From NCBI GenBank assembly GCA_021805865.1, contig JAJZDX010000011.1, forward strand, positions 1,082 to 65,081: a stretch of DNA of 64,000 nt, given 5' to 3'. Shown here piece by piece: positions 7,503 through 46,484 of this stretch; the first letter of the stretch is position 1; each line of letters begins with the position of its first letter. Under the pieces are notes generated by a model. That model saw only the letters and a program-made list of their open reading frames with translations. It was not told the DNA's origin and searched no databases. The DNA is from Pseudomonadota bacterium. GTDB taxonomy: Bacteria > Pseudomonadota > Gammaproteobacteria > Steroidobacterales > Steroidobacteraceae. A program made the position numbers and the translations under genes.

Positions 7503-7521
7503 ATAAGGCGGCGATGTCTGC

Positions 7522-8586: not shown

Positions 8587-8601
8587 GACCGCTCGCCTCG
8601 C

Positions 8602-10981: not shown

Positions 10982-10991
10982 ACACAACGTC

Positions 10992-12775: not shown

Positions 12776-13075
12776 CCTCCGTCGAAACAGAGTTTTCTTG
12801 GGTCAGCGAAGGACTTGATGGATGAGGGTGGCAGGTCGAGAACGCCCCTGCCGGAAACACCCGTCAAACGGTTACACTAAACTCGTGAAATTGATGAGTA
12901 TCGAGCTTGATCCAAAAGGATGGTGCCTGCTGGGAAAGCCCCCGGGGCTGGCAGGCGCGGACCGGCTGGTCCGCCCACTGGGGACTTTTTAGCGCTTTTT
13001 CGCGGTTTTTGCAAGGCCCGCGCGGCCTTTCCTTCAACACGAGTATCCTTCAATGCACACGATAAGCCTGGACCG

Positions 13076-24422: not shown

Positions 24423-24785
24423 TCAGATGACGCGGCCCATCCGGAACAGGATCATGCCCTTCGCCACCCGGTAGACGAACCAGAGCCACACCGGGGCGAA
24501 GATGAGCGCGCCGAACCCGAACGGCGCACAAAAACCGGCCAGGATCGACCACACGAGAAACACGAAAGCCGTCCGCAGGCGCCACTGCCGGTGGCTCTGC
24601 AGAAACGGATCGGACCAGGCCTGGCGCTCCCTGCGCGTGTCGCCATACACCTGATACCAGATCGTGAAGACGAACAGCACCGCACCGAGCGCGAGCGCCG
24701 CGTACGCGCCCCTGGAGGAGCGGCGCGCGTCCCCCCCCCTGTCCGCGCACGCAAGCCCGTCCGGCGCCACCGCGGCGTGCGTCAC
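24423..24785 (-). CDS. Small polytopic membrane protein of unknown function, apparently coupled to petC
   Basis: Hydrophobic segments AYAALALGAVLFVFTIWYQVY and AFVFLVWSILAGFCAPFGFGALIFAPVWLWFVY. GTG 24785 overlaps the petC TGA (GTGA). No family recognised. Confidence 0.5.
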   Translation of the reverse strand: MTHAAVAPDGLACADRGGDARRSSRGAYAALALGAVLFVFTIWYQVYGDTRRERQAWSDPFLQSHRQWRLRTAFVFLVWSILAGFCAPFGFGALIFAPVWLWFVYRVAKGMILFRMGRVI

Positions 24786-25594
24786 CTGCCGACTCTCCAC
24801 CAGCGCTCTTCACTGGTGTCGACCCGCCGCCAATAGAGCTTGTAGAGGAGGTAGGTCAGGATCGACAGCACCACGAACAGCCCGATGATCCAGGGTCCGA
24901 GGCGCGCCCGCTCCTGTTGGTGCGGATGCGCCACCGCGTAGAGGAACTCCACGATGTCCCGCGCCGTTCGGTCGAACTGCGCCGGCGTCATGCTGCCTTT
25001 CGTCAGCGGCTCGACGCCGATTGCGACCTTCGCCGGGCTGCCATAGCGCAGCCCTTCGACCATCCGCGGCTTCTGCAGGCCCTGCAGCGGCGCGAACACA
25101 TCGGGCATCGCCACATTGTTAAAGACGACGTTGTTGACGCCGTTCGGACGCGATGGATCCACGTAAAACGACGTGAGATAGGTGAACAGCCACGCCGGCG
25201 AGTGCCGCCGGGCGATATCCGTCAAGTCCGGCGGAGGTATCTTCGCGAACGCATCGATGATCGCCGGCGGCATGCTCGTCGTAATGGTGTCGTGATAATG
25301 ATGGCCGTTCGTTCCGATGACCTGCTTGAACGCGCTTTCGCTCAGGCCGAGCATCCGGGGCAGCGAGCTGTAGCGCGCTCCCTGCAGCGAGTGGCAGGCC
25401 ACGCACATGTGCAGGACGTACAGGGCGCCATTGCGCAATGCCGCCTTGTCCTGCAGATTGACCGTTATCGGCTTGAGCGGCGGCTGCGTCGAGGCCACCG
25501 AGGCCCGCGCCGCCCCGCACGTGAAGACCGCGAGCGACGCGGCCAGCGCAGCCAAGGCCCCAGGGCGCCCGAACGGTGATTTTTTCGTCGTCAT
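24782..25594 (-). CDS. petC: Cytochrome c1 of the bc1 complex
   Basis: Signal peptide, CVACHSL haem motif, PPDLTDIA.., C-terminal TM anchor (LGPWIIGLFVVLSILTYLLYKLYW). 270 aa from ATG 25594. Confidence 0.85.
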   Translation of the reverse strand: MTTKKSPFGRPGALAALAASLAVFTCGAARASVASTQPPLKPITVNLQDKAALRNGALYVLHMCVACHSLQGARYSSLPRMLGLSESAFKQVIGTNGHHYHDTITTSMPPAIIDAFAKIPPPDLTDIARRHSPAWLFTYLTSFYVDPSRPNGVNNVVFNNVAMPDVFAPLQGLQKPRMVEGLRYGSPAKVAIGVEPLTKGSMTPAQFDRTARDIVEFLYAVAHPHQQERARLGPWIIGLFVVLSILTYLLYKLYWRRVDTSEERWWRVGR

Positions 25595-25677
25595 CGCTTG
25601 ATCCCGCCGAATTGGTTTCGTGCAATCTTTGCCGATGCTGAGCACTGCCATGCGTAACTCCCGTTCCGAGGCCGCGC

Positions 25678-27111
25678 TCAGTGGAAAACACCGCCGGCGG
25701 TGAGCCGTTCCGGCAGCTTCTGCGCATCGCGCGCCAGTCCCGGGAAGACGATCGCGAGCCCGAAGATGAGCAGCAGGTACAGCGCCGGAATCCAGTCCGT
25801 GAGCAGCATCAGGCCCCAGCCGTGTGCATGGATGGAGTACATCCACACATCGATCAGCCACACCAGCGCCTCGGCGACCACCAGCCAGATCACCTTGGCG
25901 CGCGTCGAGCGCTGCCGGTTGAAGAACGGCAGCACCAGGAACGTCGCATAGAACACCTCGGCGACGTGCAGGCCGTACACCATGTTGTGCTCCGTCGCGA
26001 AGCCGTGCGCGATGAAGCCAAGCCAGAGGAAGGACAGCGCCATCATCAGGATGTTGGCCTTGCACAGCACGGAGCGGTAGCGGATCGAGCGCACGGGATT
26101 GCGGTCGAGCAGCGGCAGGCATGCGAACAGCGCGAACGTGCCGGCGAACGCCATGATGCCGTACGCCTTGTTCGGCACGCCGCGCAGGATCGCGTAGAAC
26201 GGCAGGAAGAACCACAGCGGATGGATGTCCGCCGGGGTGTGCAGAATGTTCGCCGGTGTGTAATTGAGCTTATCCAGCAGGAAGCCCCAGCCGCTCGGGT
26301 TGTAGAACACGAACCAGAAGAAGACCACGAAGAATACGCTGACCCCGAACAGGTCCTTGACCGTGTAATAGGGGTGGAAGGGAATGCCGTCGCGCGGCCA
26401 GCCCGACTCGTTGACGCTGTCGTGGATCTCGACGCCGTCCGGATTGTTCGACCCGACATGATGCAGGGCGATCAGGTGCACCAGCACGAGCGCGAGCAGC
26501 AGCAGCGGCATCAGGAACACGTGAAAGACGAAGAAGCGGTTGAGCGTCGGCAGATCCACCACGAACGAGCCGCGCAGCCAGGTGGCGATCGGCTTGCCGA
26601 TGACCGGCACGGCGGTCACGAAATTGGTCACGACCGCCGATCCCCAGTAGGACATCTGCCCCCAGGGCAGCAGATAGCCGAGGAACGCCTCGGCCGCGAG
26701 GGCAAGGTAGATGAAGATGCCGATCAGCCACAGCAGCTCGCGCGGCTTCTTGAACGATCCGTAGAGGATGCCGCGGTACATGTGCAGGTAGACCAGCAGG
26801 AAGAACGCCGAGGCCCCGACGATGTGCATGTCGCGGATCAGCCATCCCCAGTGCGAGTCCCTCTGGATGCCGCGCAGCACCGACCAATACGCCAGATGCG
26901 GATTCGGCTGATAGTGGATGGCGAGAAACAGCCCGGTGGCGAGCTGCATGACCAGCACCAGCATCGCGAGCGAGCCGAAGAAGTACCAGAGGTTGAAATT
27001 CTTCGGCGCCGGATACCGGGTGAGCTGGCTGCGCCACAGGGAGGAAATCGGCAGCCTGTCATCGAACCAGCCGAACACCCGATGCGCCATCGGTCGCTTG
27101 TTGCTATTCAT
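25678..27111 (-). CDS. petB: Cytochrome b of the bc1 complex (long form, 477 aa)
   Basis: NFNLWYFFGSLAMLVLVMQLATGLFLAIHY, His ligands (..RDMHIVGASAFF..YLHMYRG.., FFVFHVFLMP..VHLIALH), and PEWY-region equivalent ..PWGQMSYWG... Confidence 0.9.
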   Translation of the reverse strand: MNSNKRPMAHRVFGWFDDRLPISSLWRSQLTRYPAPKNFNLWYFFGSLAMLVLVMQLATGLFLAIHYQPNPHLAYWSVLRGIQRDSHWGWLIRDMHIVGASAFFLLVYLHMYRGILYGSFKKPRELLWLIGIFIYLALAAEAFLGYLLPWGQMSYWGSAVVTNFVTAVPVIGKPIATWLRGSFVVDLPTLNRFFVFHVFLMPLLLLALVLVHLIALHHVGSNNPDGVEIHDSVNESGWPRDGIPFHPYYTVKDLFGVSVFFVVFFWFVFYNPSGWGFLLDKLNYTPANILHTPADIHPLWFFLPFYAILRGVPNKAYGIMAFAGTFALFACLPLLDRNPVRSIRYRSVLCKANILMMALSFLWLGFIAHGFATEHNMVYGLHVAEVFYATFLVLPFFNRQRSTRAKVIWLVVAEALVWLIDVWMYSIHAHGWGLMLLTDWIPALYLLLIFGLAIVFPGLARDAQKLPERLTAGGVFH

Positions 27112-27198
27112 GGTGTCTCAGACCTTCCAGTACATAAATGGCGCCGGACCCCGCAAGGGAGAAAGACTGGGGGGCGCCCGCATTGCGTGGCGGCACGA

Positions 27199-28002
27199 TC
27201 AGTGCGCAGCTGCGCCGGCGCCCGCGGCGCCGGTCGCTGAGGAGGTCGGCGTTCCGGCCGCCTTCCGGCCGGCCGTGCCGGCCGGGGCGAGCGTCCTTGC
27301 GTACGCGGGGAAATCCTTCGGGCCGATTCCCAGCACGGTGGCCGGATCGAGCTGGCGCACATAGGCGGCGATCGCCGCCTCCTGCGCGGCGTTCATCGCC
27401 CGTGCGATCGAGTGCATGACGTGGCCCGGGCTGTTGTGCCGGACGCCGCTCGCGAACTGCTCGAGCTGGGTCAGCACGTAGGCCGCATGCTGCCCGGCCA
27501 GTACCGGTATCGCCATGGGGCCGTTGCCCTCGCCGCCCAATCCGTGACAGGCCGCGCACGAGGGAATGTCCTTCCCGGCCACTCCCCGATCGTAGATGGT
27601 CCTGCCGAGCTCGATCTGCTGCGAGGCCGCCGCAGCGGGCGAGGCGAGGTGCGCCGACATGGGGCTCAGGCGCGAAAAATAGGCGGCGATGTCCTTCAGG
27701 TTGGCATGGTCCTTCGACGGCGGGATCGTCATGGCCATGGTGCTCATGATGGCGTTCTTCCTGGCCCCGCTGCGGAAATTCTCCAGCTGCTTGAGAATGT
27801 AGTTGTAATGCTGCCCCGCGAGATTCGGGTACGCCGGGCTCACCGAGATGCCGTTGCTGCCGTGGCAGGCGGCGCAGACGGCGACCAGGGTTGCGCCCTG
27901 TGCGGCGGCGCCCGCGGGAGGCAGACCGTGATAGTCGGCCTTGGCGTACGCCGCGGGCGCGGTCAGAACGGCGACGAGAAGCGCTGCCCAAACGGATTTC
28001 AT
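27199..28002 (-). CDS. Dihaem cytochrome c4-type protein encoded between petA and petB
   Basis: AAGGAA Shine-Dalgarno before ATG 28002. Signal MKSVWAALLVAVLTAPAAYA. Two CxxCH motifs (CAACHG at both), each followed by the c4-type ..PNLAGQH / ..PVLAGQH.. segment. Low-complexity Ala/Gly/Thr tail. Confidence 0.85.
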   Translation of the reverse strand: MKSVWAALLVAVLTAPAAYAKADYHGLPPAGAAAQGATLVAVCAACHGSNGISVSPAYPNLAGQHYNYILKQLENFRSGARKNAIMSTMAMTIPPSKDHANLKDIAAYFSRLSPMSAHLASPAAAASQQIELGRTIYDRGVAGKDIPSCAACHGLGGEGNGPMAIPVLAGQHAAYVLTQLEQFASGVRHNSPGHVMHSIARAMNAAQEAAIAAYVRQLDPATVLGIGPKDFPAYARTLAPAGTAGRKAAGTPTSSATGAAGAGAAAH

Positions 28003-28061
28003 TGCGGTTATTTCCTTCTTATGGCCGATTCGATGCGCGGACCCACTTGCCATCGGGGCGC

Positions 28062-28745
28062 TCACCAGATATCGGGCGACCAGTCTTTTTCGAGGCCGGA
28101 CACATTGACCTCACCGATGCGAGCCACGGTATCGCTCTTCCAGTAATACGGCGGTATCGGAATGTTGAGCGGCGCCGGAGATCCCTCCACGACGCGCGCG
28201 GAGAAGTCATACATCGACCCGTGGCAGGGGCAATGAAACCCGCCCGGCCACCACGGGGTCACGGTGTGCGGCGCCGGCCGGTACGCGGGAATGCACTGCA
28301 TGTGCGTGCACAGCGCCACGGCGATGAAGTATTCGGGACGCAGGGCCCGATAGTTCCCGTTGATGAATTGCGGCGCGGGCTGTTGGTTTTGCTTGCTGTG
28401 CGGGTCCTTCAGGCGATTGAGGAGCGAGGGCTCCGACAGCGTCTTCAGCATCCAGGGCTCGCGCTTGAGGATCCAGATCGGCTTCTTCTTCCATTCGGCG
28501 AGAATCAGCTGGCCCGGCTCCATGCGGCTCACGTCGACCTCGATGGGTGCGCCGAGGGCCTCGACCGCCTTGCCGGGATTCATGTTGTCTATCAAGGCGG
28601 CGGCGAACAGCCCCACGGCCCCGGCACCGAGCACCCCGGCGGTGCCGATCAGGAAGTTCCTGCGCGCCTGGTCCGTTTTCTGCGCGGGTCGGATCGAGTC
28701 CATGACCGGTTCTTTTTCTACCTGCTTCGTTTCATCATTGCTCAT
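28062..28745 (-). CDS. petA: Rieske iron-sulfur subunit of the bc1 complex
   Basis: Tat-like RRNFLIGTAGVLGAGAV. Cluster boxes CTHMQC (28293-28310) and CPCHGS. 227 aa. Confidence 0.9.
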   Translation of the reverse strand: MSNDETKQVEKEPVMDSIRPAQKTDQARRNFLIGTAGVLGAGAVGLFAAALIDNMNPGKAVEALGAPIEVDVSRMEPGQLILAEWKKKPIWILKREPWMLKTLSEPSLLNRLKDPHSKQNQQPAPQFINGNYRALRPEYFIAVALCTHMQCIPAYRPAPHTVTPWWPGGFHCPCHGSMYDFSARVVEGSPAPLNIPIPPYYWKSDTVARIGEVNVSGLEKDWSPDIW

Positions 28746-29280: not shown

Positions 29281-30105
29281 ATGCAACCCCTACCGTCCCC
29301 CCCCCCGGACTACCGCACGCTGCTCGACTATCGGGCGCCCGAGGATCTTCTCGCCGGCCGGGTCATCCTGGTCACCGGCGCCGCCCAAGGCATCGGTCGC
29401 GCCGTGGCCTTGCGCTACGCGCGCCACGGCGCCACGCTGGTGCTGCTCGACTGGGATCGGAAGGGGCTCGAGAGCCTGAACGACGAGATCCTTGCGCAGG
29501 GCCGCGGCGAGGCGCTGCTGTGCCCGGCGGACCTGTCCGGCATCACCATCGTGGGCCTGCGCGAGATCGCCGATCACATCGGCCAGCGCCTCGGCCGCCT
29601 GGACGGCCTGCTCAATAATGCGGCCTGGATCGGGGCGCTCGCGCCCTTCGAGCACTACCCGCCGGCGACCTGGACCAAGGTCATGAACATCAACATGGCG
29701 GCGCCGTTCTTCCTCACGCAATGGTGCATGCCGCTGCTGCACAAAGCGGATGATCCGGTGGTGGGATTTTCCCTTCAGGAGGCCAGCCGGGCCTATTGGG
29801 GCGGGTTCGCTCTGGCCAAGGCGGCACAGGAGGCGCTGATCGGTGTGCTGGCGGACGAGTACCACGCCCGGAGTGCGCATCCGGTGCGGCTCTTCGGCAT
29901 CGATACCGGACCGGTCATGACCCCGGGACGGCGCCTGCATTACCCGGGCGAGACGGTCGACGCGCATCCGCAGCCCGAGCACGTCACCGGACCCTACCTG
30001 TACGCCATGGGGCCTGAGGCGCGCGGGCACAGCCCGCTGCTGCTGCGCGTGCCCCCCGGAAAGGGCGCTCAAGCCCCCGCTCATTCCGGGGACCCCGGCG
30101 CGTAG
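29281..30105 (+). CDS. Short-chain dehydrogenase/reductase (YciK-like)
   Basis: VILVTGAAQGIGRAVA (TGxxxGxG), NNAA motif (LLNNAAWIG), catalytic region ..YWGGFALAKAA... Confidence 0.8.
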   Translation: MQPLPSPPPDYRTLLDYRAPEDLLAGRVILVTGAAQGIGRAVALRYARHGATLVLLDWDRKGLESLNDEILAQGRGEALLCPADLSGITIVGLREIADHIGQRLGRLDGLLNNAAWIGALAPFEHYPPATWTKVMNINMAAPFFLTQWCMPLLHKADDPVVGFSLQEASRAYWGGFALAKAAQEALIGVLADEYHARSAHPVRLFGIDTGPVMTPGRRLHYPGETVDAHPQPEHVTGPYLYAMGPEARGHSPLLLRVPPGKGAQAPAHSGDPGA

Positions 30106-30167
30106 ACACCTCGCCCTCCCCGGCGGGTGCAGCGGCCGTCACACCCATCCGGCTTTGCGGTACGATA

Positions 30168-30191
30168 CGCTATATTTGCAGGAATATAGCG
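30168..30191. promoter_or_regulatory. ModE-type Mo-box upstream of the ModA-like gene
   Basis: CGCTATAT-ttgcagga-ATATAGCG: perfect 8-bp inverted arms, 8-nt spacer, ending 16 nt before the TTG start at 30207. Same geometry as the E. coli modA operator as I recall it. Confidence 0.65.
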
Positions 30192-30206
30192 AAACGGGAG
30201 CATGCC

Positions 30207-31076
30207 TTGTCCGCCGCCCGCTCCATGACCGTCACGATGCTGGGTGCCATCGTGCTGCTGTCCGCCCAAGCCGCCCGCGCCCGGGCTGACGTCAATGTGC
30301 TTTACGCCGGCTCCCTGGTCAATCTGATGGAGCGCCACCTCGGCCCGGCCTTCGATCGTGCGAGCGGCGAGCACTTCCGCGGCTATGCGGGCGGCTCGAA
30401 GCTGCTCGCCAACGAGATCCGCGGACACCTGCGGCGGGCTGACGTGTTCGTGAGCGCCGCGCCGTCGGTCAATCGGATGCTCATGGGGCGGCGCCACGGC
30501 AACTGGATCCGCTGCTATATCACCTTCGCACGATCATCGCTGGTGATCGGCTACGATCCTTCGAGCCGTTTCGCCGCGGCGTTCAGGACCCGCCCGTGGT
30601 ACCGGGTGTTGGAGATGCCCGGCATCCGCCTGGGACGCACGGACCCCAGGCTCGATCCCAAGGGCGCTCTGACGATTCGACTGATGCGCCGGGCGCAGAG
30701 GTATTATCACCTTCCGGGACTGGCGAATCGGGTGCTCGGCTCGCCCGAGAACCCCGCCCAGGTGCTGCCGGAGGAAGCGCTGGTCGGACGTCTGCAGTCA
30801 GGACAGCTCGACGCCGGTATTTTCTATTCGACCGAGACCTCGGAGGCGCACATCCCGGCGATCCGCCTGCCGACGGCCATCACGCCGAAGGCGCTCTATA
30901 CCATCGCCATCGTGCGCAACGCACCGGATCCGCGCGCCGCCGAGGCGTTCATGAGCTTCCTGCTCGGTCCCCGGGGCCGGCGCCTGATGAAGGAGAACGG
31001 CCTCACGCTGCAACGCCCCGTGATCGCGGGCAATACGCGCTCGCTGCCGGCGAAGATTCGGGCGCTGTTAAAATAA
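30207..31076 (+). CDS. modA: Periplasmic molybdate/tungstate-type binding protein (ModA/WtpA-like)
   Basis: GGGAG 6 nt before TTG 30207. Signal ..MLGAIVLLSAQAARA. VLYAGSLVNLME....YAGGSKLLANEI....ADVFVSAAPSVN resembles the ModA/WtpA class. Mo-box immediately upstream. Confidence 0.65.
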   Translation: MSAARSMTVTMLGAIVLLSAQAARARADVNVLYAGSLVNLMERHLGPAFDRASGEHFRGYAGGSKLLANEIRGHLRRADVFVSAAPSVNRMLMGRRHGNWIRCYITFARSSLVIGYDPSSRFAAAFRTRPWYRVLEMPGIRLGRTDPRLDPKGALTIRLMRRAQRYYHLPGLANRVLGSPENPAQVLPEEALVGRLQSGQLDAGIFYSTETSEAHIPAIRLPTAITPKALYTIAIVRNAPDPRAAEAFMSFLLGPRGRRLMKENGLTLQRPVIAGNTRSLPAKIRALLK

Positions 31077-31080
31077 CTTC

Positions 31081-32901
31081 ATGAATCGCAAAGTGGCCTC
31101 GCCCCTGCCTTGGCTCGCGGGGCTGCTCGCGGTGTATCTCATCGCGCCGCTCGTGGCCGGTGTGCAGCAGGCCGCCTCGGCCCGCTGGAGCGCGGTCGAC
31201 TACCCGGCCCTCGTGCACGCCTGCGAGGTCTCCCTTGCCAGCGCCACGACCGCTACCGCCCTGGTGGCGCTCCTTGGCATTCCGCTCGGGTATCTCCTGG
31301 CGCGCTTGCGAGGGCGGGCCATGGCGCTGCTCGGTTTTCTGGTGCAGCTTCCGCTTGCCCTGCCGCCGCTTGCAAGCGGCGTGCTGCTCCTGTTCCTGCT
31401 CGGCTACGACTCCCCGTTGGGCCGGCTCACGGACGGCGCGCTGACCGACTCGTTCGCGGGCATCGTTCTGGCCGAGGCCTTCGTGTCGGCTCCGTTCGTG
31501 ATCATCGCGGCGCGCTCGGCGTTCGCCGCCATGGATCCTGCGATGGAGGATGTGGCGGCAACCCTCGGCCGCACGCCGTTCGAGGTGTTCTGGCGGGTGA
31601 GCCTGCCGGTGGCGCGGCCGTCGCTCCTGGCGGGACTGCTGCTCGCCTGGCTGCGCGCCTTCGGCGAGTTCGGCGCCACCGTCATGGTCGCCTACCACCC
31701 CTACTCGCTGCCCGTCTATACCTACGTCGCCTTCGGCGCGCAGGGGCTGCCGGCCATGCTGCCCGTGTTGTTGCCGGCGCTGGTACTGGCGCTCGCGGTC
31801 ATGGCGCTGAGCGGCACCGTGGGCACGCGCGGCGCCAGAGGCGCGACGCCGGTGCGCCCGCAGGCCTCGTTTGCGGCGAGCCGACCTGCGCCTCGCAGGA
31901 TCGGGGCTTCGCAGGCGCTGCAACTGGCCATCGATGTCGAGAAGCATCTGGACGGCTTTCATCTTGCGCTCGCGTGGCAACCCCGTTCGCGCCGGCTCGC
32001 GATTCTCGGCTCTTCCGGCTCGGGCAAGTCATTGACCCTGAAGCTGATCGCCGGGCTCGCGCGCCCCGACCGGGCCACGATCAGGATCGGCGGACGGGAT
32101 CTGTCGCATCACGAGCCGGCCGCACGGGCAGTGGCCTACGTGCCGCAAAGCTATGGCCTGTTTCCGCACCTGGATCTGGCCGCCCAGCTACGTTTCCCGG
32201 TGGGCGCCGATCGCGCGGCGGCGGCCCATTGGATTGAGCGGCTCGGCCTCCTCGGCCTGGAGCACCGCCGGCCGGGCGAGCTTTCCCTCGGACAGCAGCA
32301 GCGCGTCGCGCTCGCACGGGCGCTCGTCAGGCCGGCGGATCTGCTGCTGCTCGATGAGCCCTTCTCAGCGCTCGATACGCCGCGGCGTGTGGCGCTTCGC
32401 CGGGAGCTCCTCGCCCTGCAGGGGGAATTCGCTGGCATCACCCTGCTGGTCACCCACGACCCGCAGGAGGCGGCTCTGCTGGCCGATGAGATCCTCATTC
32501 TCGAGAGCGGCCGGCCGCTGCAGACGGGCCTCACCCAGGACCTCTTCCGCCGGCCTGTCAACGAGCTTGCCGCGCGGCTGCTCGGCGCCGACAACGCGGC
32601 CGAAGGCCGCGCGGAGGGCAATCGCATCGATGTGGGCAACGGCGCCCGCGTCGCCGTGTCCGGTCCGCTGCTTGGAGCCGGCCGCGTCGGCTGGAGCATT
32701 CCGCCGGATCGGACGTGGATCAGTCCGGCCGGAGCCCACGAAGGGGTCGTGGAGGCTGTCCATGGCGGACCGGAGCCCCAGCTGCTGCTGCGTTTCGGCG
32801 CCACACGCATCCGAGTGACCGGCGGAGGGAGTCTCGCACCCGGCCAGGTCTGCCGCTTCGACATCGATTCCGAGCGGATCCAGGTCTGGCCGCTCGGCTG
32901 A
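31081..32901 (+). CDS. Fused ABC permease-ATPase (ModB-ModC-like) with C-terminal TOBE-like domain
   Basis: N-terminal ~270 aa polytopic permease with EAA-type loop (EDVAATLGRTPFEVFWRVSLPVARPSL). Then Walker A GSSGSGKS, signature LSLGQQQRVALARAL, Walker B LLLLDEPFSALD, and a ~110-aa tail. Confidence 0.8.
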   Translation: MNRKVASPLPWLAGLLAVYLIAPLVAGVQQAASARWSAVDYPALVHACEVSLASATTATALVALLGIPLGYLLARLRGRAMALLGFLVQLPLALPPLASGVLLLFLLGYDSPLGRLTDGALTDSFAGIVLAEAFVSAPFVIIAARSAFAAMDPAMEDVAATLGRTPFEVFWRVSLPVARPSLLAGLLLAWLRAFGEFGATVMVAYHPYSLPVYTYVAFGAQGLPAMLPVLLPALVLALAVMALSGTVGTRGARGATPVRPQASFAASRPAPRRIGASQALQLAIDVEKHLDGFHLALAWQPRSRRLAILGSSGSGKSLTLKLIAGLARPDRATIRIGGRDLSHHEPAARAVAYVPQSYGLFPHLDLAAQLRFPVGADRAAAAHWIERLGLLGLEHRRPGELSLGQQQRVALARALVRPADLLLLDEPFSALDTPRRVALRRELLALQGEFAGITLLVTHDPQEAALLADEILILESGRPLQTGLTQDLFRRPVNELAARLLGADNAAEGRAEGNRIDVGNGARVAVSGPLLGAGRVGWSIPPDRTWISPAGAHEGVVEAVHGGPEPQLLLRFGATRIRVTGGGSLAPGQVCRFDIDSERIQVWPLG

Positions 32902-32954
32902 GCGGCCCTCTTTGCGCTCTGAGCCTGCGCCGGTTGCGGATCCGCGCCGCACTT

Positions 32955-32978
32955 CGTTATATTCATCCCAATATCACG
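32955..32978. promoter_or_regulatory. Second ModE-type Mo-box, upstream of the TonB-dependent receptor
   Basis: CGTTATAT-tcatccca-ATATCACG: same 8+8+8 geometry, 7/8 arm complementarity, ending 17 nt before ATG 32996. Confidence 0.6.
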
Positions 32979-32995
32979 AATAATCGAGGTCTCGC

Positions 32996-35563
32996 ATGCC
33001 GCGCCCGCGCCCCCGAAGAATGGCCCGCGCCTTTGCAATCGCAACGGGCGTGGCGCTGGCATTGCCGGGCTGCGCCGTCGCACGCGCGCAATCCGGCACC
33101 GACGGGCCCTCCGCCAGGACGCAAGGCATACCGCACTCGCCGTCCAGCGCGCTTCACGAGGTGGTCGTGCTCGGCAGCCGCGAGCCCGGCATCACGGCGG
33201 CCGATAGTGCGGCTCCCGTGCAGATAATCGGCGCACACGCGCTCGAGACGGCCGCGGGCAACCCGAGCCTCATGTCGGCGCTCGCGCAGACCGTCCCTTC
33301 GTTCACGCTGCAGACGTTCGGCAACGACATGGCCGGCCAGACCCTGCAGGCGAAACTGCGGGGTCTTTCGTGCAACGACACGCTGGTGCTCGTGAACGGC
33401 AAACGGCGGCACACGACCGCCAACATCGAGGTCGACAGCGGACCGTTCCAGGGCTGTGCCGGCGCCGACCTCGACTTCATTCCGGTGGCCGCCATCAGGC
33501 GCATCGAGGTGCTGACTGACGCAGCGGCCGCCCAGTACGGCAGCGGCGCCATCGCCGGCGTCATCGACATCATCCTCAAGAACGACCCCTCCGGGGGGAG
33601 CCTCTCCGGAACCTACGGGGGATACCTGGACGGCGGCGGCGTCACCGGCGAGGTGTCCGTGCACGCCGGATTCGAGCCCATCGAGCACGGCTACTTCGAC
33701 CTGACGGGCGAGTCGCACCACCACGGCAGCAGCAATCGCAGCGCGATCGATGAGCGGGTCGTCAATCCCGCCAATCTCGCGACGTATCCCGACTCGAACA
33801 TGACGCAGGCCCCGGGATACCCTTACCTCGGCGCCGAGGAAGGCGACGGAAATTACGACCTGAAGACCTTCGCGCTCAACGCCGGCTTCCCGCTCCGCCG
33901 GATCGACTTCTATGTCTTCGGCACCTATGGGGTCAAGGATGCGCAGTCGTTCCAGAAGTATCGCCTGCCCGACAAGGTCGCCTACACGGACCCGAGCACC
34001 GGCGTGACCACCTATCCCTTCCCCTTCGGCTTCGTGCCGCTTGAGGCGAGCCGCGAGACCGATTACTCCGGGACCGCGGGACTGAAGGGCCTGCTCGATC
34101 ACTGGCTGTGGGATCTCAGCAGCACCTATGGACGGGATCACTTCAATGCCTACACGCTCGACTCCGCGAACTCGGGAATCTACGACAGCACCGGCCATCC
34201 GACGCCGAGCAACTACTACGACGGCTACCTGCAAACGACCCAGTGGACCTCCAACCTCGACGTGAACCGGAACTTCGACATCGGCCTCCCGGGGCCGCTG
34301 AATGTCGCATACGGCCTGGAATACCGCCGTGACAGCTACGGCATCGGAGCCGGCATTCCGATCTCGTACCTCGACGGCGGCGCGCAAGCCTATCCCGGCT
34401 TCACACCGACCGACGCCGGCACGCACCATCGGGACGTCGAGGCCGTCTATGTCGATCTCGCCGCACAGCCCTTGGAAGCGCTGCGGGTCGATCTCGCCGG
34501 ACGCTTCGATCACTTCAGCGACTTCGGCAGCACGATGGTCGGTGAGCTCACCGCGCGATACGAGCTCACGCCGCGGCTTGCGGTGCGTGGCACGGTGAGC
34601 AGCGGCTTTCGGGCCCCGACGCTCGCCGAAGAGTACTACTCCTCGACCAACGTCACGCCAACGAGCGCATTCGTGCAGCTGCCCCCGAACTCTCCCGGCG
34701 GGCGGCTCATCGGCCTGGGCAACGGGCTCAAGCCCGAGCATTCGGTCAATTTCAGCATCGGCCTGGTGTGGCATCCCCTGCCAAAGGTCATCGGCACGCT
34801 CGATCTTTATCAGATCAACATCACCAATCGCATCGTCGCGACGGGTGACCTCTATGGAACGCTGAACGGGGTGGCGCAGCCGGCGGCCGCGGCCATCAAT
34901 GCGGCGATCGCGGCCAACGGCAATCAGCTCGATCCCTCGGTGCTCGCGACCGGCACGACCGGTGTGACCCTGTTCGCCAACGGCATCGATACGAGCACGC
35001 AGGGCGCGGACCTCGTGTTCGACATTCCTCAGTCGTACCCCTTTGGACGCATCGACTGGTCGATCGGCGGCACCTTCAATCGAACCCTCGTGACGAAGGT
35101 GCCGGCCGGGCCCGCATCGCTCGCCGGGCAAACGCTCTATGACGCAACGGCCATTTCGGATCTCACCGCGGCGAGCCCCCGGTACGTACTCGATCTCGGC
35201 GGCTCATGGACGCACGGTAAGCTCCGGGTGCATCTCGAGGAGCAGGTCTACGGGCAGAGTTCGGAGTGGGAGAACGACGACGGCGACAATCCCTCGAACG
35301 TTCCCGAATACTTCCAGACCACGATCGGCGTCACGCCGATCACCGACCTCGAGGTGGCGTATCGGTTCCTCGAGCACTTCACCTTGAGCGCCGGGGCGAT
35401 AAACCTGTTCAATCGGTATCCGAACCGCTACAACGCGACCCTGCTCGCCCACTACGACAACTTCAAATACGGCGACACGCTCGGCGTGTTCCAGTACCCG
35501 ATGTTCTCGCCCTTCGGCATCGACGGGGGGTACTACTACGTGAGGGGCACGATCCGGTTCTGA
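32996..35563 (+). CDS. TonB-dependent outer-membrane receptor (no STN domain)
   Basis: 855 aa. Signal peptide, plug (..LVLVNGKRR.., IEVLTDAAAAQYGSGAIAGVIDIILK), 22-strand-sized barrel, terminal ..YYYVRGTIRF. Confidence 0.85.
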   Translation: MPRPRPRRMARAFAIATGVALALPGCAVARAQSGTDGPSARTQGIPHSPSSALHEVVVLGSREPGITAADSAAPVQIIGAHALETAAGNPSLMSALAQTVPSFTLQTFGNDMAGQTLQAKLRGLSCNDTLVLVNGKRRHTTANIEVDSGPFQGCAGADLDFIPVAAIRRIEVLTDAAAAQYGSGAIAGVIDIILKNDPSGGSLSGTYGGYLDGGGVTGEVSVHAGFEPIEHGYFDLTGESHHHGSSNRSAIDERVVNPANLATYPDSNMTQAPGYPYLGAEEGDGNYDLKTFALNAGFPLRRIDFYVFGTYGVKDAQSFQKYRLPDKVAYTDPSTGVTTYPFPFGFVPLEASRETDYSGTAGLKGLLDHWLWDLSSTYGRDHFNAYTLDSANSGIYDSTGHPTPSNYYDGYLQTTQWTSNLDVNRNFDIGLPGPLNVAYGLEYRRDSYGIGAGIPISYLDGGAQAYPGFTPTDAGTHHRDVEAVYVDLAAQPLEALRVDLAGRFDHFSDFGSTMVGELTARYELTPRLAVRGTVSSGFRAPTLAEEYYSSTNVTPTSAFVQLPPNSPGGRLIGLGNGLKPEHSVNFSIGLVWHPLPKVIGTLDLYQINITNRIVATGDLYGTLNGVAQPAAAAINAAIAANGNQLDPSVLATGTTGVTLFANGIDTSTQGADLVFDIPQSYPFGRIDWSIGGTFNRTLVTKVPAGPASLAGQTLYDATAISDLTAASPRYVLDLGGSWTHGKLRVHLEEQVYGQSSEWENDDGDNPSNVPEYFQTTIGVTPITDLEVAYRFLEHFTLSAGAINLFNRYPNRYNATLLAHYDNFKYGDTLGVFQYPMFSPFGIDGGYYYVRGTIRF

Positions 35564-35593
35564 GCGCGGACTGCCGGCAACCGCCGGGGTCGC

Positions 35594-36429
35594 TCACCTC
35601 CCGATTCGCTCCATCGCCAGCCAGGGCCTGCCCCGGTAGCTCTCCGCCACGAGCCACGCTGCGACGGTCATCGTCCAGGAGTCCCCGAGCTCGCCCCACT
35701 GGCCGGCGCTGATGTGCCCGGTCAGCGCAAAGGGCGCCCACACCAGCAGCGTGAAGAGCCCCATCTGCACGGCTGCAAGCGTAGCGGCCAGGCGCGCCAG
35801 CACTCCGCTGAGCACGGCTGCGGCCGCAGCGAGGTACGCGGCACCAAAGAAAGACGCCCAGAACACGTGCGCCGGCAGCCAACCCGGCACCAGCAGCGCG
35901 GTGTAGCCCAGATAGGCGAAATGGGACAGGCCGAAGGCAATCAGGGCGAGGGCATAGAGCAGCCTGGCCAGGCGCACGCCGCCCTCACCCGCCGCAAACT
36001 CGAGCCACCGGATGTCCCAGCCGGTCGTGAGCCACGTATACAGCACCCAGGCCCCCGCGACCAATACCACGGTCTCCCCGGCGCTTTCATAGTTCACCTC
36101 CACCATCGGCGAGGCGATGATGTAGGGCACCTTGATCAGCAGCAGCCACAGGAGCAGATAGGCGAGCAGCGCAGCGGAAGCGACGGCGCGGCGCCCCTCA
36201 AGAGCAGACCCACGCCACAGACGAGGGAGAGGCAGGCACAGACATAGGCGAGCACATCGCGTGCAGGCAAGCCCTGCGGAACGCCTTCCCAGATCCCGGC
36301 GAAGCGACCCGTAACCAGACCTGAAAGGCCAAGGACGATCAACGTCACCGCAAGGAGCGCATGGCCCGCACTTGCGATACGGGTCCCGCCTCCGGCGACT
36401 GCAGCGGCATGCTTGCTTGCCGAGCTCAT
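35594..36429 (-). pseudogene. DoxX-like polytopic membrane protein, apparent frameshift
   Basis: N-terminal part in ORF 36136-36429 (..HALLAVTLIVLGLSGLVTGRFAGIWEGVPQGLPARDVLAYVCACLSLVCGVGLLLRG). The remainder is in the frame of ORF 35594-36439 (VASAALLAYLLLWLLLIKVPYIIAS...WGELGDSW..AESYRG). The frames switch around 36150-36200, next to a G4 run. Confidence 0.55.
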
Positions 36430-36528
36430 GGAGCCTCACTTCGCGCTGTCACGGTCACGGTCACGTACGAGTCCCCCCCCCACGCCCGGCCTGCCCGCCG
36501 CATTCCCCCTGACGCCGGCCATCGCCGC

Positions 36529-37281
36529 TCACGAAGCCCAGCGGACGTCCGGCAGGCCCTGCACGAGCAGCATGACCGCGATGAGGAGTATCCCAAGGTT
36601 GACGAGCCGGGAGAACGAGCGGGCGTCGATGCGGCCGTTCATCGCTCTGCCCAGCAACGTAGCCACGAGCACTCCGGGCAACGACATCAGATAATAGCGC
36701 GTCACGTCCGCCCTCCACAGCCCCGCCAGCCAGTAGCCCGCCATGGATATCATGCTGGCCGGGAGAAAGTAGCCCTGCAGGGTTGCGCGAAAGCGCTGAG
36801 GCGACCACCCGCGAAGCGTGCCATACATCACGAGCAGCGGCCCATTCATCCCGAAGGCGCCCCCGAGCATGCCCGCGCACAGACCGAACGGCCAGGCCAG
36901 CCGGTCGTCCGTGAGCACCGCCCGCTTGCGAGACAACAGGAGGTATGCCGAGAAGCCCGCCAGGAGCAGGCCGAGGCACGCCTTCGCGACTCCCGGTTGC
37001 ACCCGTGTCAGAAGAAGCAGCCCCAGGGGCGTACCGATCAGCGTGGAGGCCACCAGCCAGCCCGCGCTGCGCACATGCACCTGGCGCCAGTCCTGGATCA
37101 AAACGACGGCGGCCACGGTGATGGAGACCAACACCACGATGGGGACGGCCGCTGGTATCGGAAGGAGGAGCGCAAGGAGGGGCACGGCGATCAATGCCTC
37201 GCCAAAGCCAAGGCTCGAGCGCACCAGCGTCGCGAAAAACAGCACCGCCGGCACCTCGATCACAGTATCGCCTGCACTCAT
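36529..37281 (-). CDS. TSUP (TauE/SafE, DUF81) family anion exporter
   Basis: 250 aa, ~8 TM, duplicated 4-TM pattern with ..LGFGEALIAVPLL.. and ..GGAFGMNGPLLV.. motifs. Confidence 0.8.
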   Translation of the reverse strand: MSAGDTVIEVPAVLFFATLVRSSLGFGEALIAVPLLALLLPIPAAVPIVVLVSITVAAVVLIQDWRQVHVRSAGWLVASTLIGTPLGLLLLTRVQPGVAKACLGLLLAGFSAYLLLSRKRAVLTDDRLAWPFGLCAGMLGGAFGMNGPLLVMYGTLRGWSPQRFRATLQGYFLPASMISMAGYWLAGLWRADVTRYYLMSLPGVLVATLLGRAMNGRIDARSFSRLVNLGILLIAVMLLVQGLPDVRWAS

Positions 37282-37589
37282 CGCGCCCCGACTCCCCGAC
37301 TGAGCTCAACCCGATCGCGGCACCCGAGCCGGACGGAGGACTCCTCGATGGCGGCCTCCAGCGACCACCCAAGGGCGCCGCAGGCGGCGCATTCCTGCCC
37401 CACGATGACGCGGCCGCAATCAGGGCCGCCCGCTCGACTCGCCCGCCACGGGCGCAAGCGGACCCTCACCGTGTGGAGGGCGGAGCCTGGCGCCCAGTCA
37501 CCCCGGAGCTCGCGCCCCTTCCTCATCTGAACCGGACACTCCTCGGCTGCGCCGACCTCACCGAAGGCAAAGGCCGAGGAATCGGCCAC
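37278..37589 (-). CDS. Hypothetical small Cys-containing protein (weakly supported)
   Basis: GTG-initiated 103-codon frame whose stop overlaps the TSUP start (ATGA). About 80% of codons end in G/C by my count. No family recognised and the composition is Arg/Gly-rich. Confidence 0.25.
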   Translation of the reverse strand: MADSSAFAFGEVGAAEECPVQMRKGRELRGDWAPGSALHTVRVRLRPWRASRAGGPDCGRVIVGQECAACGALGWSLEAAIEESSVRLGCRDRVELSRGVGAR

Positions 37590-37640
37590 GACGGTCGCAC
37601 ACGCTGCATTTGCAGGGTGCGCAACGTCAAAGGCGGGAAT

Positions 37641-38363
37641 TCAGGTCTCCGGCGGATCCATCCGGCACACGCACAGCGACGTCCCGCGGATGTGGCTCAG
37701 GGATCTGAAGCGCCGATCGCTCCGATAGAACTCGTTCAGGGCGCGGGCGACGCCGGGAAAAACCGTGCCGTAATCGTGCCAGAGGACGGTTCCGCCCGGC
37801 CGGACCAGCTTGAGCGCAATCTCGGAATCATTGCGGACATACTCATATTCGTGGCACGCATCCACGAAAACCAGATCACACTGGCCGAACCACGGGGAGA
37901 AATCGTACGTCGCCGAGTCGCCATACAGTTGGACCACGTTCTTCATGTCCCTGCTCTTGGCGCCGGAGGTCTCTTTCATGATGTACTGAATGTCATATTT
38001 CCCGAGCGGCAGTTTCGCCGCGCCGATGTCCTGTGCGGGCAGATCAATCGTCACGATCTTTGCGCTCGAGCCGAGGTTCAGCGCAAGGTTGGCGGCCGAC
38101 CATCCATCAAATGTCCCGATTTCAAACACCGTGGCGGCGTTGAGTGCTTTCGCCAGGCTGAGTATGATCGCCTGCTCCAACAGACTCGTATTGCCGTTCA
38201 CCCGATCCAGATCGATCAAGGCGATCTGCACGGGATACTCGAGGATCGCGGACGCCGGGATATCGGGCACGAGCATTTCAGGCGGCGCCGCTCTGCGGCC
38301 AAATGGATTAGCCAGCCTTCTGCGACCGCCCTTGCCCGTAAAAGGGAACTTGATTGCATCCAT
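37641..38363 (-). CDS. Class I SAM-dependent (O-)methyltransferase, Methyltransf_24-like
   Basis: VFEIGTFDGWSA (motif I), ..VTIDL.., DLVFVDACHEYEYV..LVRPGGTVLWHDY. Lower GC than neighbours by eye. Confidence 0.75.
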   Translation of the reverse strand: MDAIKFPFTGKGGRRRLANPFGRRAAPPEMLVPDIPASAILEYPVQIALIDLDRVNGNTSLLEQAIILSLAKALNAATVFEIGTFDGWSAANLALNLGSSAKIVTIDLPAQDIGAAKLPLGKYDIQYIMKETSGAKSRDMKNVVQLYGDSATYDFSPWFGQCDLVFVDACHEYEYVRNDSEIALKLVRPGGTVLWHDYGTVFPGVARALNEFYRSDRRFRSLSHIRGTSLCVCRMDPPET

Positions 38364-38602: not shown

Positions 38603-39526
38603 TCAGGCGAGCGGCTTGCGCGCGGTGAGGTAGGCCATGCGGTCGGTACTCACCGCTTTCGGATCCTCGATGACCGGCCGCATGCTGCGCTCGAAGAAAT
38701 CCCGTTCCGCCGCCGAGAACTGCTCGGCCATGATGCGGCTCAACGGCGGAGCGAGCGGGTGCGGGGAACTGTGAACGAACGTGTCCCAGGAGCGCGTCAT
38801 CGAGGGGCCCATGTCGATGTGCAGCTCCAGATGCAGATCCGTCAGGCCTGCGTTTTGGGCGAAGCGAATGAGATCGCGCTCGGAATAGTTGGCGATTGGG
38901 CAGGCGCGGATCCTTTCCTCCGTGTCGGGAAACTGCGCGGCCTGCCATCGGTGCAGCAGCACCATGAGCGGGCTCACCCCCTCCCGGGGCTTGGAATCGA
39001 TCACGGTTTTCATGGCTTGCACGGCGATCGCCTCATCCTGGAACACCGGCTCGGCGAGTGAAACGCGCCCACCGGGCTTCAATATCCGCTGGAATTCGCG
39101 CAGCGCTGCGGTCTTGTCGGCGACGTACGCCAGGACGGAGCGCGTCGCGACGACGTCCACCGATGCATCGGCTATGCCCTCGAGGTGGTCGGCCGGACAG
39201 CGCAGGAACGAGCACTGGCCGAGGACGCCACGCTCGACTGCCTGGGCCCGAGCGTGCTGCAGCATCGGCTCGGACACGTCCGTGAGCCATGCGCGCAGCG
39301 TCGGGCCAACGCGCTCCATCGCCCGAAACGCGACGAGCCCCTCGCCCGCACCGACGTCGACGAGCGTCTGGCCAGGGGCGAGCTGCGCGCCATCGAGGAG
39401 CCGCTCGATGTAGCGGTCGACAGCGATGCGTACGGCCTGCTGCAGCCGAGCGTCACCCCCATGCCGCTGGCGCAGAAGCCACTGCGACCACACATCCTCC
39501 GTCGGATCTTGCTCATCACGCGCCAT
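38603..39526 (-). CDS. Class I SAM-dependent methyltransferase (type 11-like) with C-terminal extension
   Basis: LVDVGAGEGLVA (motif I), ..SVDVVATRSVLAYV.., LKPGGRVSLAEP. Confidence 0.8.
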   Translation of the reverse strand: MARDEQDPTEDVWSQWLLRQRHGGDARLQQAVRIAVDRYIERLLDGAQLAPGQTLVDVGAGEGLVAFRAMERVGPTLRAWLTDVSEPMLQHARAQAVERGVLGQCSFLRCPADHLEGIADASVDVVATRSVLAYVADKTAALREFQRILKPGGRVSLAEPVFQDEAIAVQAMKTVIDSKPREGVSPLMVLLHRWQAAQFPDTEERIRACPIANYSERDLIRFAQNAGLTDLHLELHIDMGPSMTRSWDTFVHSSPHPLAPPLSRIMAEQFSAAERDFFERSMRPVIEDPKAVSTDRMAYLTARKPLA

Positions 39527-39754
39527 GCGCCCCCCGGGAACCGTGCCTGCAACCGGCTCATCTTACGCGAGGGCTCGCGCGGCGCGCATTCCGGCCGGGG
39601 CATCGTGACAGGCGGTCCATTCGATTGCGCCGTCTCTTCCGCCCGCCGTCGATCGCACCGCTCCCGAGGCCATGAATCCCTTCGCCGGCGAGGCTTCGCA
39701 TGGCCGGCGCATCCGCCATTTGCTACAGTCTCACCGGTCCCGACACGCCCGTTT

Positions 39755-40942
39755 ATGAAAGACATCCGGATCCAGTCAGGAATAGGTACCCGGCTTTCCC
39801 AGCTGGGAAGAATGACCGAAGCGCATTATGGCTTCGTCAACACTCCCATCTATCGAGGCTCGACGGTGCTGTTCAAGACCCTCGACGACCTCGAGCACAT
39901 GCGGGCGCGCTACGTCTACGGCACCGCGGGCACGCCGACCATCGAGAGCCTGGAGAGCGCCTGGACGGCGATCACCGGGGCGGCCGGCACCGTCCTGTGC
40001 CCTTCGGGCCTCGGCGCTGTCGCCATCGCCTTGATGGCGACCCTCAAGCACGGCGATCACCTGCTCATGCCGGACAGCGTCTACCTCCCATCGCGATCGC
40101 TGTGCGCCAATCTGCTCGAGAGGTTCGGGGTCGAAACGACCTTCTACGATCCTCTTCTCGGGGCGCGTCTCGAATCGCTCGTGCGCTCGAACACATCGAC
40201 CATCTTCCTGGAGTCTCCCGGCTCTCAGACCTTCGAAGTGCAGGATGTGCCGGGAATTACGGAATTTGCGATCAAGCGGGGCATCAAGACCATCATCGAT
40301 AATACCTGGGCCACACCGCTTTTCTTTTCCGCCCACGAGCACGGATGCGATCTGTCGGTGGAGGCCGGGACGAAGTACCTGAGCGGGCATTCCGACCTGC
40401 TGCTCGGTCTCGTGAGCGCGAATGCGGCAACGTGGCCCGCGCTGAAGAAGACCGCTCAAAGCATGGCGATGCTGCCGGGGGCCGAGGACTGCTACCTCGC
40501 GCTGAGGGGAATGCGCTCCCTGCACATCAGGCTCAAGGAAGCCCAGAGCAGGGGCCTCGAGATGGCGCACTGGCTGCAGTCACAGCCGGAAGTCCTGACC
40601 ATACTGCATCCGGCGTTCGCATCCTGCCCGGGCCATGAGCTCTGGAGGCGCGATTTCAAGGGCTCGACGGGCCTCTTCTCCATCATCCTTCGCCCCGGCT
40701 TCACCCGGCAGGCCCTCGCCTACATGCTTGATCATCTCTCGATATTCGGGATGGGCTACTCCTGGGGAGGCTTCGAGAGTCTCATCATCCCGTTCGACTG
40801 CAGCGCCTACCGGACGGCGACCCGATGGAATCCGGAGGGCTTCTGCCTGCGGCTGCAGATCGGACTCGAGGACATCGATGACTTGAGGGCGGACCTGCGC
40901 GCGGGCTTGGACAGGTTGTCCGCGCCCACCCGGGCCGCGTAG
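39755..40942 (+). CDS. metC: Cystathionine beta-lyase
   Basis: 395 aa, colinear with E. coli MetC as recalled: ..AGTKYLSGHSDLL (PLP Lys), HPAFASCPGHELWRRDFKGSTGLFS, MGYSWGGFESLI, RLQIGLEDIDDLRADL. Confidence 0.9.
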   Translation: MKDIRIQSGIGTRLSQLGRMTEAHYGFVNTPIYRGSTVLFKTLDDLEHMRARYVYGTAGTPTIESLESAWTAITGAAGTVLCPSGLGAVAIALMATLKHGDHLLMPDSVYLPSRSLCANLLERFGVETTFYDPLLGARLESLVRSNTSTIFLESPGSQTFEVQDVPGITEFAIKRGIKTIIDNTWATPLFFSAHEHGCDLSVEAGTKYLSGHSDLLLGLVSANAATWPALKKTAQSMAMLPGAEDCYLALRGMRSLHIRLKEAQSRGLEMAHWLQSQPEVLTILHPAFASCPGHELWRRDFKGSTGLFSIILRPGFTRQALAYMLDHLSIFGMGYSWGGFESLIIPFDCSAYRTATRWNPEGFCLRLQIGLEDIDDLRADLRAGLDRLSAPTRAA

Positions 40943-46074: not shown

Positions 46075-46484
46075 TAAGAGCACGGAGCCCGGGCTCGCGC
46101 CGCAGTCTTTGCGATGTTCCGCTGGTACCGGGAACCGGCCCTGCGCGGCACCCTCTCCTGCGAACCCCCTCTGGCCAGACGATACTTTGTGGTGTAAAGT
46201 CCATGGGCCTGAGGATCTGGATAGAACTGCGGCGTAACCGCTTTGAACGGGGGATTGAGAGGCGGCCTCTTGCCACCTTTGGCCGGCGGATGCTTCTAAA
46301 CGATGCGGAACGTCTACCGGACTCTGGCCCCGGGGCGGCTTTTCGTGCGACAGTAATGCGCCCCCCGGCGCCTGACGTACCGGCTGCGTAGAGTCCATTG
46401 CACGTGCCTCGGAGCTGACCCTAGACCGAGAGATCAACCAATCGGGCGGACCTCGCACCTCCCGGAAAATTGGGCCAATTGCGT

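Follow-up and report, generated by a model that had tools for sequence, protein, structure and literature searches.

What is a ModE-like operator doing in front of the gene of a TonB-dependent outer-membrane receptor? The question is raised by a 64,000-nucleotide stretch of contig JAJZDX010000011.1 (assembly GCA_021805865.1, positions 1,082 to 65,081), from a Pseudomonadota bacterium of the Steroidobacteraceae, which is called the window throughout this text. Its forward strand encodes, one after the other, a periplasmic binding protein (30207..31076), a fused ATP-binding cassette (ABC) permease and ATPase (31081..32901) and a TonB-dependent receptor (32996..35563), and two palindromes with shared arms precede the first and the third of these genes. 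We consider it rather likely, from sequence comparison, that the palindromes are operators of the ModE family, that the ABC operon and the receptor form a set of genes repressed by molybdenum or tungsten (Mo/W), and that the receptor takes up a Mo/W species.

The first palindrome, Mo-box 1 (30168..30191, no strand assigned), reads CGCTATATTTGCAGGAATATAGCG, that is CGCTATAT-N8-ATATAGCG around the spacer TTGCAGGA. It is a perfect inverted repeat in both 8-nt arms and the predicted ModE-family operator of the binding-protein/transporter operon. The second, Mo-box 2 (32955..32978, likewise without a strand), reads CGTTATATTCATCCCAATATCACG, with the arms CGTTATAT-N8-ATATCACG and the spacer TCATCCCA; it is one mismatch off a perfect palindrome and is predicted to be the ModE-family operator of the receptor gene. 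An earlier sequence-only reading of this DNA had reported both sites, and direct reading of the sequence bore out their coordinates as well as the shared arms and spacing. It had also placed them 16 and 17 nt before their genes. The second figure stands, with the Shine-Dalgarno sequence GAGG lying between Mo-box 2 and ATG 32996, and the first has to be corrected to 15 nt, counted to TTG 30207, with the Shine-Dalgarno sequence GGGAG at 30196-30200. The in-frame ATG 30225, which is conserved in a related locus (L122), may be the true start of the binding-protein gene, and the gap then becomes 33 nt. A pattern search allowing up to three mismatches found no copies in the 64 kb besides these two. 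When sites are scored by their match to CGNTATAT-N8-ATATANCG, which has 14 specified bases, Mo-box 1 reaches 14/14 and Mo-box 2 13/14. First-order Markov simulations of the window give an expectation of 0.003 sites scoring at least 13 per 64 kb, against the two observed; the palindromes are far beyond chance.

In the Escherichia coli genome (NC_000913) the modA operator is CGTTATATTGTCGCCTACATAACG, exactly as given in the earlier reading, and it ends 19 nt before the modA ATG, while the region upstream of moaA contains CGCTATATACATGATTACATAGCG. Each of these operators scores 13/14 on the consensus used for the window. The two window sites fit the shared palindrome equally well or better, their spacing is identical, and their distances to the start codon are comparable to that of the modA operator. 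Related Mo-boxes of ModE, MopA and MopB occur in Proteobacteria. Two hallmarks of such a box are found here, namely the inverted repeat CGnTATAT-N8-AnATAnCG with its TATAT-N7-TAYAT core, and a position at the 5' end of Mo/W-class transport genes, the latter in the window as well as in the related loci L001 and L122. No Fur box was found before the binding-protein or the receptor gene, where the best match (9-10 of 19 positions) is at chance level, and no Rfam element, the molybdenum cofactor riboswitch included, matched anywhere in the window.

Homologues of the receptor were collected on 80 species-representative genome contigs, on 36 metagenome contigs and on further contigs located from exact proteins; the names of the homologues point to the Steroidobacteraceae of the Gammaproteobacteria as the family of the window. 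The orthologue set comprises 21 distinct loci with upstream DNA present, from Steroidobacteraceae-like metagenome-assembled genomes, in which the receptor is 61-88% identical. In 19 of these 21 loci a box scoring at least 13 lies upstream of the receptor. A neighbour-joining tree groups the box-bearing receptors as a single clade, to which the two loci without a box (L104 and L105) are sister, and the box was never present in front of homologues at 57% identity or less. Across 22 distinct boxes the arms are conserved and the 8-nt spacers are free (consensus CG[CT][TA]ATAT-nC....Gn-ATATA[GA]CG), which is the pattern expected for a palindrome bound by a protein. Locus L001 contains equivalents of both Mo-box 1 and Mo-box 2, the arms being identical for box 2 and the spacers differing. 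In the window and in L001 the box ends 17-22 nt before the receptor start codon, directly 5' of the Shine-Dalgarno sequence; over the orthologues the distance is 4-180 nt, an approximate range, several of the start codons being only estimated.

The box is kept with the receptor irrespective of the neighbouring genes, which are pstSCAB in L004 and unrelated genes elsewhere, and in L122 a perfect box stands before a binding-protein/transporter operon where no receptor is present. The occurrence of the box without the transporter (L004 and others) and without the receptor (L122) argues against an origin of the shared motif by duplication of a single intergenic stretch. That the receptor generally lies beside a mod-like transporter was rejected, such synteny being confined to the window and L001-L003. 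In L004 (10001-17291) the box-bearing receptor is followed by pstS, pstC (of which only the C-terminal half was called), pstA and two tandem pstB genes. A TupABC tungstate system was considered for this neighbour and rejected; it is a true pstSCAB cluster, with PstS scoring 415 bits against a cut-off of 339.

The conservation data bear directly on the plainest alternative, that the palindromes arose by chance in AT-rich promoter DNA, or form a promoter element of a general kind, and have no dedicated regulator. The TATAT and ATATA of the arms do resemble -10 hexamers, and a simple scan of 30000-36600 detected no separate sigma-70 consensus promoter. Set against this are the simulated expectation given above and the scores over 1.83 Mb of loci (through L121), which are bimodal, with 24 matches at 13-14, none at 12 and 11 at 11, the background. 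All matches of at least 13 in this DNA lie upstream of a receptor orthologue, a binding-protein gene or modE, and a single intergenic site in L129 is the only addition to these places. Moreover, the 22 distinct sites, variable as their spacers are in sequence, all keep the CG flanks and a spacing of exactly 8 nt. We regard chance sequence as an extremely improbable explanation, effectively refuted by the conservation data.

Three further loci show how the box varies in the surroundings of the transporter and of the putative regulators. In L124 a degenerate box, CGCCGTATTAGGATGACTATAACG (6980-7003, 11/14), lies in the divergent region between genes for a ModE N-domain protein and a Mop protein on one side and the binding-protein/transporter genes on the other, and in L123, whose transporter is 69% identical, a box is missing altogether. 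The transporter family is therefore not uniform in the strength of its operators or in how it is regulated. In L129 a 13/14 box, TGATATATTCTTACAAATATAGCG (9375-9398), lies between a 99-amino-acid (aa) open reading frame (ORF) without family on the reverse strand and a DUF302 gene on the forward strand. This box is 1.9 kb from a ModE N-domain gene and possibly marks a further member of the regulon.

The gene behind Mo-box 1 encodes a 289-aa periplasmic protein (counted from TTG 30207) of the SBP_bac_11 family (Pfam, E 2e-31), a predicted molybdate/tungstate-binding protein of the WtpA/archaeal-ModA class. The best NCBIfam matches are WtpA (92 bits, cut-off 355) and then ModA (22.8 against 62.5), all below the cut-offs, and the nearest PDB chains (PH0151, MA_0280 and AF_0094, named 'Molybdate/tungstate binding protein') match with E values of 1e-15 to 1e-18. 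A DPxxDPxG-type stretch aligns with PH0151. The label 'ModA-like' given to it earlier needs correction, the NCBIfam and PDB matches placing the protein nearer to WtpA and archaeal ModA than to bacterial ModA.

The following gene (31081..32901, forward strand) encodes 606 aa with a permease part (residues ~13-245, BPD_transp_1), an ATPase part (residues ~283-500, ABC_tran) and a C-terminal tail of ~100 aa, and is the predicted inner-membrane Mo/W importer. In NCBIfam it scores 170 bits against WtpC (cut-off 440), 151 against WtpB (340), 138 against ModB (183) and 137 against ModC (285), and it also matches Mo_ABC_porter below the cut-off; the ATPase part is nearest to ModC of Archaeoglobus fulgidus (2onk_A, E 5e-43). 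By these sequence matches, the ABC system is a distinct subfamily of the Mo/W class and not an equivalog of WtpABC or ModABC. Two remarks of the sequence-only reading on this protein did not hold. The fusion of permease and ATPase, which it called unusual, is common in the family, being found in 120 of the 120 best homologue clusters (587-653 aa, both domains). The 'TOBE-like tail' could not be confirmed either, since Pfam TOBE has no match in residues 483-606 even at E<=1, and the tail alone has no match in the PDB. Such a tail is only hinted at by the alignments to CysA (1z47) and FbpC (3fvq), which extend ~55-70 residues past most of the ATPase matches and into the regulatory domains; PF08402 is carried by one homologue of the fusion protein.

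The receptor itself (32996..35563, forward strand, 855 aa) consists of a Plug domain (residues 69-189) and a TonB_dep_Rec_b-barrel domain (335-804) according to Pfam. By eye, its N-terminus is signal-peptide-like and carries a TonB-box-like motif, HEVVVLGS. It reached the cut-off of none of the curated receptor subfamilies in NCBIfam. Only the plug (residues 54-212) aligns to the solved receptors PirA, FepA, CirA and BtuB. It does not qualify by full-length similarity as a catecholate siderophore receptor of the FepA/PirA type, its best score against the FepA family being far below the cut-off (89 bits against 583). Three residues, N110, E145 and L829, and no others, are fixed in the box-bearing receptors and different in the outgroups. 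Receptors of this clade are at present labelled 'iron complex outermembrane receptor protein'; as a rule for annotation, we suggest that they are probably not iron receptors.

Several of the receptor loci also encode a candidate regulator. In L006 a box (9133-9156) is followed by a gene for a 270-aa ModE (9182-9994, found by tblastn with E. coli ModE) and then by the receptor (10031-12574). This ModE passes the cut-off of TIGR00637 (ModE_repress; 98.9 bits against 98.5), matches TIGR00638 (Mop) in two stretches with 131.8 bits (cut-off 55), and contains Pfam HTH_1 and two TOBE domains. Altogether a ModE-type regulator gene is linked to the receptor in 10 loci, one with a full ModE and nine with a ModE N-domain gene, which in L007, L086, L088, L091, L099, L106, L110, L111 and L112 lies directly downstream of the receptor. 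Where called, the short proteins have 139-171 aa, their best family is ModE_repress (E ~1e-24), and proteins of this type are labelled 'molybdate transport system regulatory protein' by the JGI. In L124 the short ModE N-domain gene stands beside a gene for a 68-aa Mop protein, divergent from a binding-protein/transporter operon that is 66% identical.

Reciprocal sampling of ModE N-domain homologues on four long contigs (L126-L129) gave a different picture. In L126-L128 (6022-7492), three Steroidobacteraceae-like contigs, the gene order is HEM4-domain gene (PF02602), lipid-A acyltransferase gene and ModE N-domain gene, with neither receptor nor box nearby, and in L129 the ModE N-domain gene has another context and the one box described above. 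Linkage to the receptor is thus frequent in the loci that were fetched with the receptor and not general for the regulator family. The window has a 322-aa ORF (46470-47438) that by eye reads like a lipid-A acyltransferase, with no ModE N-domain gene after it.

Taken together, the ModE-type nature of the boxes and the membership of the receptor in a Mo/W regulon are predictions that are well supported by comparison. The earlier proposal that the receptor belongs to such a regulon gains from the operator match, the conservation in 19 of 21 loci and the 10 linked regulators; the response, the binding and the cargo stay predictions. The system could work as follows. The regulator, encoded outside the window, would be a ModE of full length, or else one of the short N-domain proteins acting with a separate Mop protein. 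With sufficient molybdate or tungstate it would occupy both boxes, which lie directly 5' of the ribosome-binding sites and over the likely promoter and transcript start, an overlap of operator and promoter that is assumed from position alone. The bound regulator would shut off the operon of the WtpA-class binding protein and the fused permease-ATPase on the one hand and the receptor gene on the other, and both units would be derepressed when Mo/W is scarce. TonB energy would then drive a Mo/W species through the receptor into the periplasm, from where the ABC system would carry the oxyanion into the cell. Because the periplasmic partner is of the oxyanion-binding class, two routes can be envisaged: entry of the oxyanion as such, or entry of a chelate that releases its load in the periplasm. 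In this scheme we infer the response to Mo/W, and co-regulation with the transporter suggests the Mo/W cargo of the receptor.

The geometry of the boxes, which is like that of modA, points to repression rather than activation. The opposite direction of control has to be considered nevertheless: ModE might activate the receptor gene when Mo is plentiful, and the receptor would then serve Mo-dependent metabolism, by importing a substrate or a cofactor precursor, and not scavenging. E. coli ModE is a dual regulator that activates at moaA, dmsA and napF, and moaA carries the same box. Several orthologues, too, have the box ~75-180 nt before the predicted start, a position that would fit an upstream activator. 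In the window and L001, in contrast, the 17-22 nt between box and start reproduce the geometry of the repressed modA operator of E. coli. An identical box fronts the uptake transporter of the same locus, and in L006 modE and the receptor gene make up one operon with one box before it. We therefore hold activation to be quite unlikely.

A number of observations weigh against a Mo/W-repressed uptake system. Outside the window and its closest relatives L001-L003 the receptor does not adjoin binding-protein/transporter genes, and in L004 it stands beside a phosphate transporter, an adjacency that may be coincidence or may reflect shared oxyanion handling. The window has no gene for ModE or a ModE N-domain protein, as the sequence-only reading had already stated and as a profile search and tblastn (best E ~0.7) bore out, and the scan for a sigma-70 promoter mentioned above was negative. 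The short regulators score 80-89 bits against the TIGR00637 cut-off of 98.5 and have no Mop domain; they are ModE N-domain-like proteins and not full ModE, and their ligand is uncertain. E. coli ModE also activates some genes, so that repression is no more than the probable direction of control. The receptor sequence, its clade-specific residues included, gives no hint of a substrate, and an AlphaFold2 model built on a 16-sequence alignment was poor (predicted local distance difference test, pLDDT, 57; predicted template modelling score, pTM, 0.62), too poor for a fold search.

Some of these points would fit an alternative in which the box is bound by an N-domain-only paralogue of ModE that no longer senses molybdate, or never did, and answers to another signal. 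The cargo of the receptor would then be something other than Mo/W, such as an iron or vanadium chelate or a different oxyanion, for instance phosphate, and the co-regulation with the WtpA-class transporter would be partial or coincidental. Nine of the 10 linked regulators lack Mop and fall below the ModE_repress cut-off, the L004 receptor lies directly upstream of pstSCAB, and the best matches of the plug are catecholate-siderophore receptors. That last similarity is, however, confined to the universally conserved plug (hence the 89 bits against 583), and no Fur box lies upstream. The same box precedes the WtpA-class Mo/W transporter and the full di-Mop ModE of L006, and it matches operators of E. 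coli ModE that are known from experiment. In L124, furthermore, a gene of the same ModE N-domain family shares an operon with a Mop gene, and the Mo/W transporter is encoded divergently from the two. We judge this alternative to be unlikely, if less so than activation. On balance we retain ModE-type repression of a Mo/W uptake system, and with it the view, drawn from these comparisons, that the scavenging of molybdenum or tungsten probably includes, in some bacteria, an energised passage of the outer membrane. The narrower proposition, that molybdate or tungstate is the dedicated cargo of this ModE-controlled clade of TonB-dependent transporters, is put forward tentatively, as a possibility about which we remain rather doubtful.

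Other features of the window are described for completeness. A weak terminator-like hairpin (32935..32951, forward strand) lies between the transporter gene and Mo-box 2; it is not significant by itself, one such site being found in the region against 2.5 expected in shuffled sequence. Directly after the receptor, four genes at 35594-38363 on the reverse strand (a 281-aa protein without family, TauE/SafE, a 103-aa protein without family and a methyltransferase) separate it from a pyridoxal-phosphate enzyme of Cys/Met metabolism. They are absent from the otherwise syntenic L001, which indicates an insertion or deletion difference. The enzyme is encoded by a 585-aa Cys_Met_Meta_PP ORF (39185-40942, forward strand) in which the domain begins at residue 205. 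The L001 orthologue was called at 400 aa, and the long N-terminal extension is probably an artefact of mechanical ORF-start choice.

Upstream of the binding-protein gene, a cytochrome bc-type cluster (24423-28745, reverse strand) with genes for a Rieske protein (28062-28745), a dihaem cytochrome c (27199-28065) and cytochrome b (25678-27111) lies between a hydrolase gene and the short-chain dehydrogenase/reductase and binding-protein genes. Its counterpart in L001 is at 1285-5610, and in L122 and L123 the binding-protein gene comes immediately after the hydrolase gene. With its additional cytochrome c gene between those of the Rieske protein and cytochrome b, the cluster departs from the usual petABC order. 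A second TonB-dependent receptor of 889 aa (3412-6081, reverse strand) is encoded directly upstream of a pyrroloquinoline quinone-dependent dehydrogenase (867-3167, reverse strand) that has a C-terminal cytochrome c domain. Neither a Mo-box nor a Fur box was found upstream of this receptor, and its pairing with the dehydrogenase may reflect co-ordinated uptake for the quinohaemoprotein. The G+C content of the window ranges over 57-70%, with 64-70% in the middle, 57-61% over the initial 12 kb and 61-63% over the final 6 kb; the ends of lower G+C (1-13000 and 58000-64000) could be compositionally distinct, possibly acquired segments.

What would such a regulon add to the known routes of metal uptake? 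Molybdenum is thought to be poorly available in soils. The passage of scarce molybdate or tungstate through the outer membrane is essentially uncharacterised, and the receptor clade offers a concrete candidate gene together with a regulon. If the proposal is true, it would be the first case of a metal oxyanion being taken up through the outer membrane with an input of energy, the Mo/W scavenging of diderm soil bacteria would have an outer-membrane step comparable to ZnuD for zinc and FrpB4 for nickel, and there would be a bearing on how a shortage of Mo limits nitrate reduction and further processes that depend on molybdoenzymes in soils. No ModE-controlled TonB-dependent receptor was found in the literature searched, which did not cover most subscription journals, and a prior description is possible.

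Of the known ModE systems, the closest is E. coli ModE-molybdate with modABC. It shares with the window an inverted repeat, CGyTATAT-N8-AyATArCG, just 5' of the first transport gene, and a full ModE (a helix-turn-helix with two Mop domains) is encoded in the related locus L006. In contrast to E. coli, the regulon predicted here takes in a TonB-dependent outer-membrane receptor, the transporter is of the WtpA class with a fused permease-ATPase, and most of the receptor-linked regulators are N-domain-only. For these there is a precedent in Campylobacter jejuni, where a ModE-like regulator without metal-binding domain reportedly controls the mod and tup transporters (Taveirne et al. 2009). That regulon has no outer-membrane receptor, however, and belongs to another phylogenetic group.

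The catecholate metallophores of Azotobacter vinelandii, which complex Mo and V, stand for the 'molybdophore' idea. Of the two forms of cargo considered here, one is likewise a Mo-chelate, taken up by a TonB-dependent receptor. Unlike in A. vinelandii, neither genes for the synthesis of a chelator nor a gene for a periplasmic binding protein of the chelate type lie near the receptor, and the binding protein encoded beside it belongs to the class that binds oxyanions.

Receptors for free trace metals under the control of metalloregulators are known in the pairs Zur/ZnuD for zinc and NikR/FrpB4 for nickel, and in OprC/NosA for copper. OprC is entered in a table of PMC8602904. With ZnuD, FrpB4 and OprC the predicted system shares its plan, in which a metal-sensing repressor stands over an ABC importer of the inner membrane and an energised receptor of the outer membrane that together scavenge a scarce trace element. 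It differs in its cargo, those receptors carrying cations whereas an oxyanion (MoO4 2- or WO4 2-) or a chelate is proposed here, and the window receptor is not closely related to them, only its plug aligning to solved receptors.

For molybdate and tungstate themselves, a genomic survey of prokaryotic uptake systems lists only ModABC, WtpABC and TupABC (PMC6147048). An outer-membrane route for molybdate has been described in Pseudomonas aeruginosa, where IcmP acts with a ModA secreted by the type VI secretion system (PMC8602904, PMC11734730), and apart from IcmP we found no outer-membrane protein described as a partner in the acquisition of molybdate in the literature searched. IcmP is a metalloproteinase-type outer-membrane protein and not a TonB-dependent receptor, it works with secreted ModA, and it is controlled by Anr and not by a Mo-box. 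The system predicted here would instead carry over to an element that forms oxyanions a principle known for cations, by which a metal sensor controls a TonB-dependent receptor together with an ABC importer.

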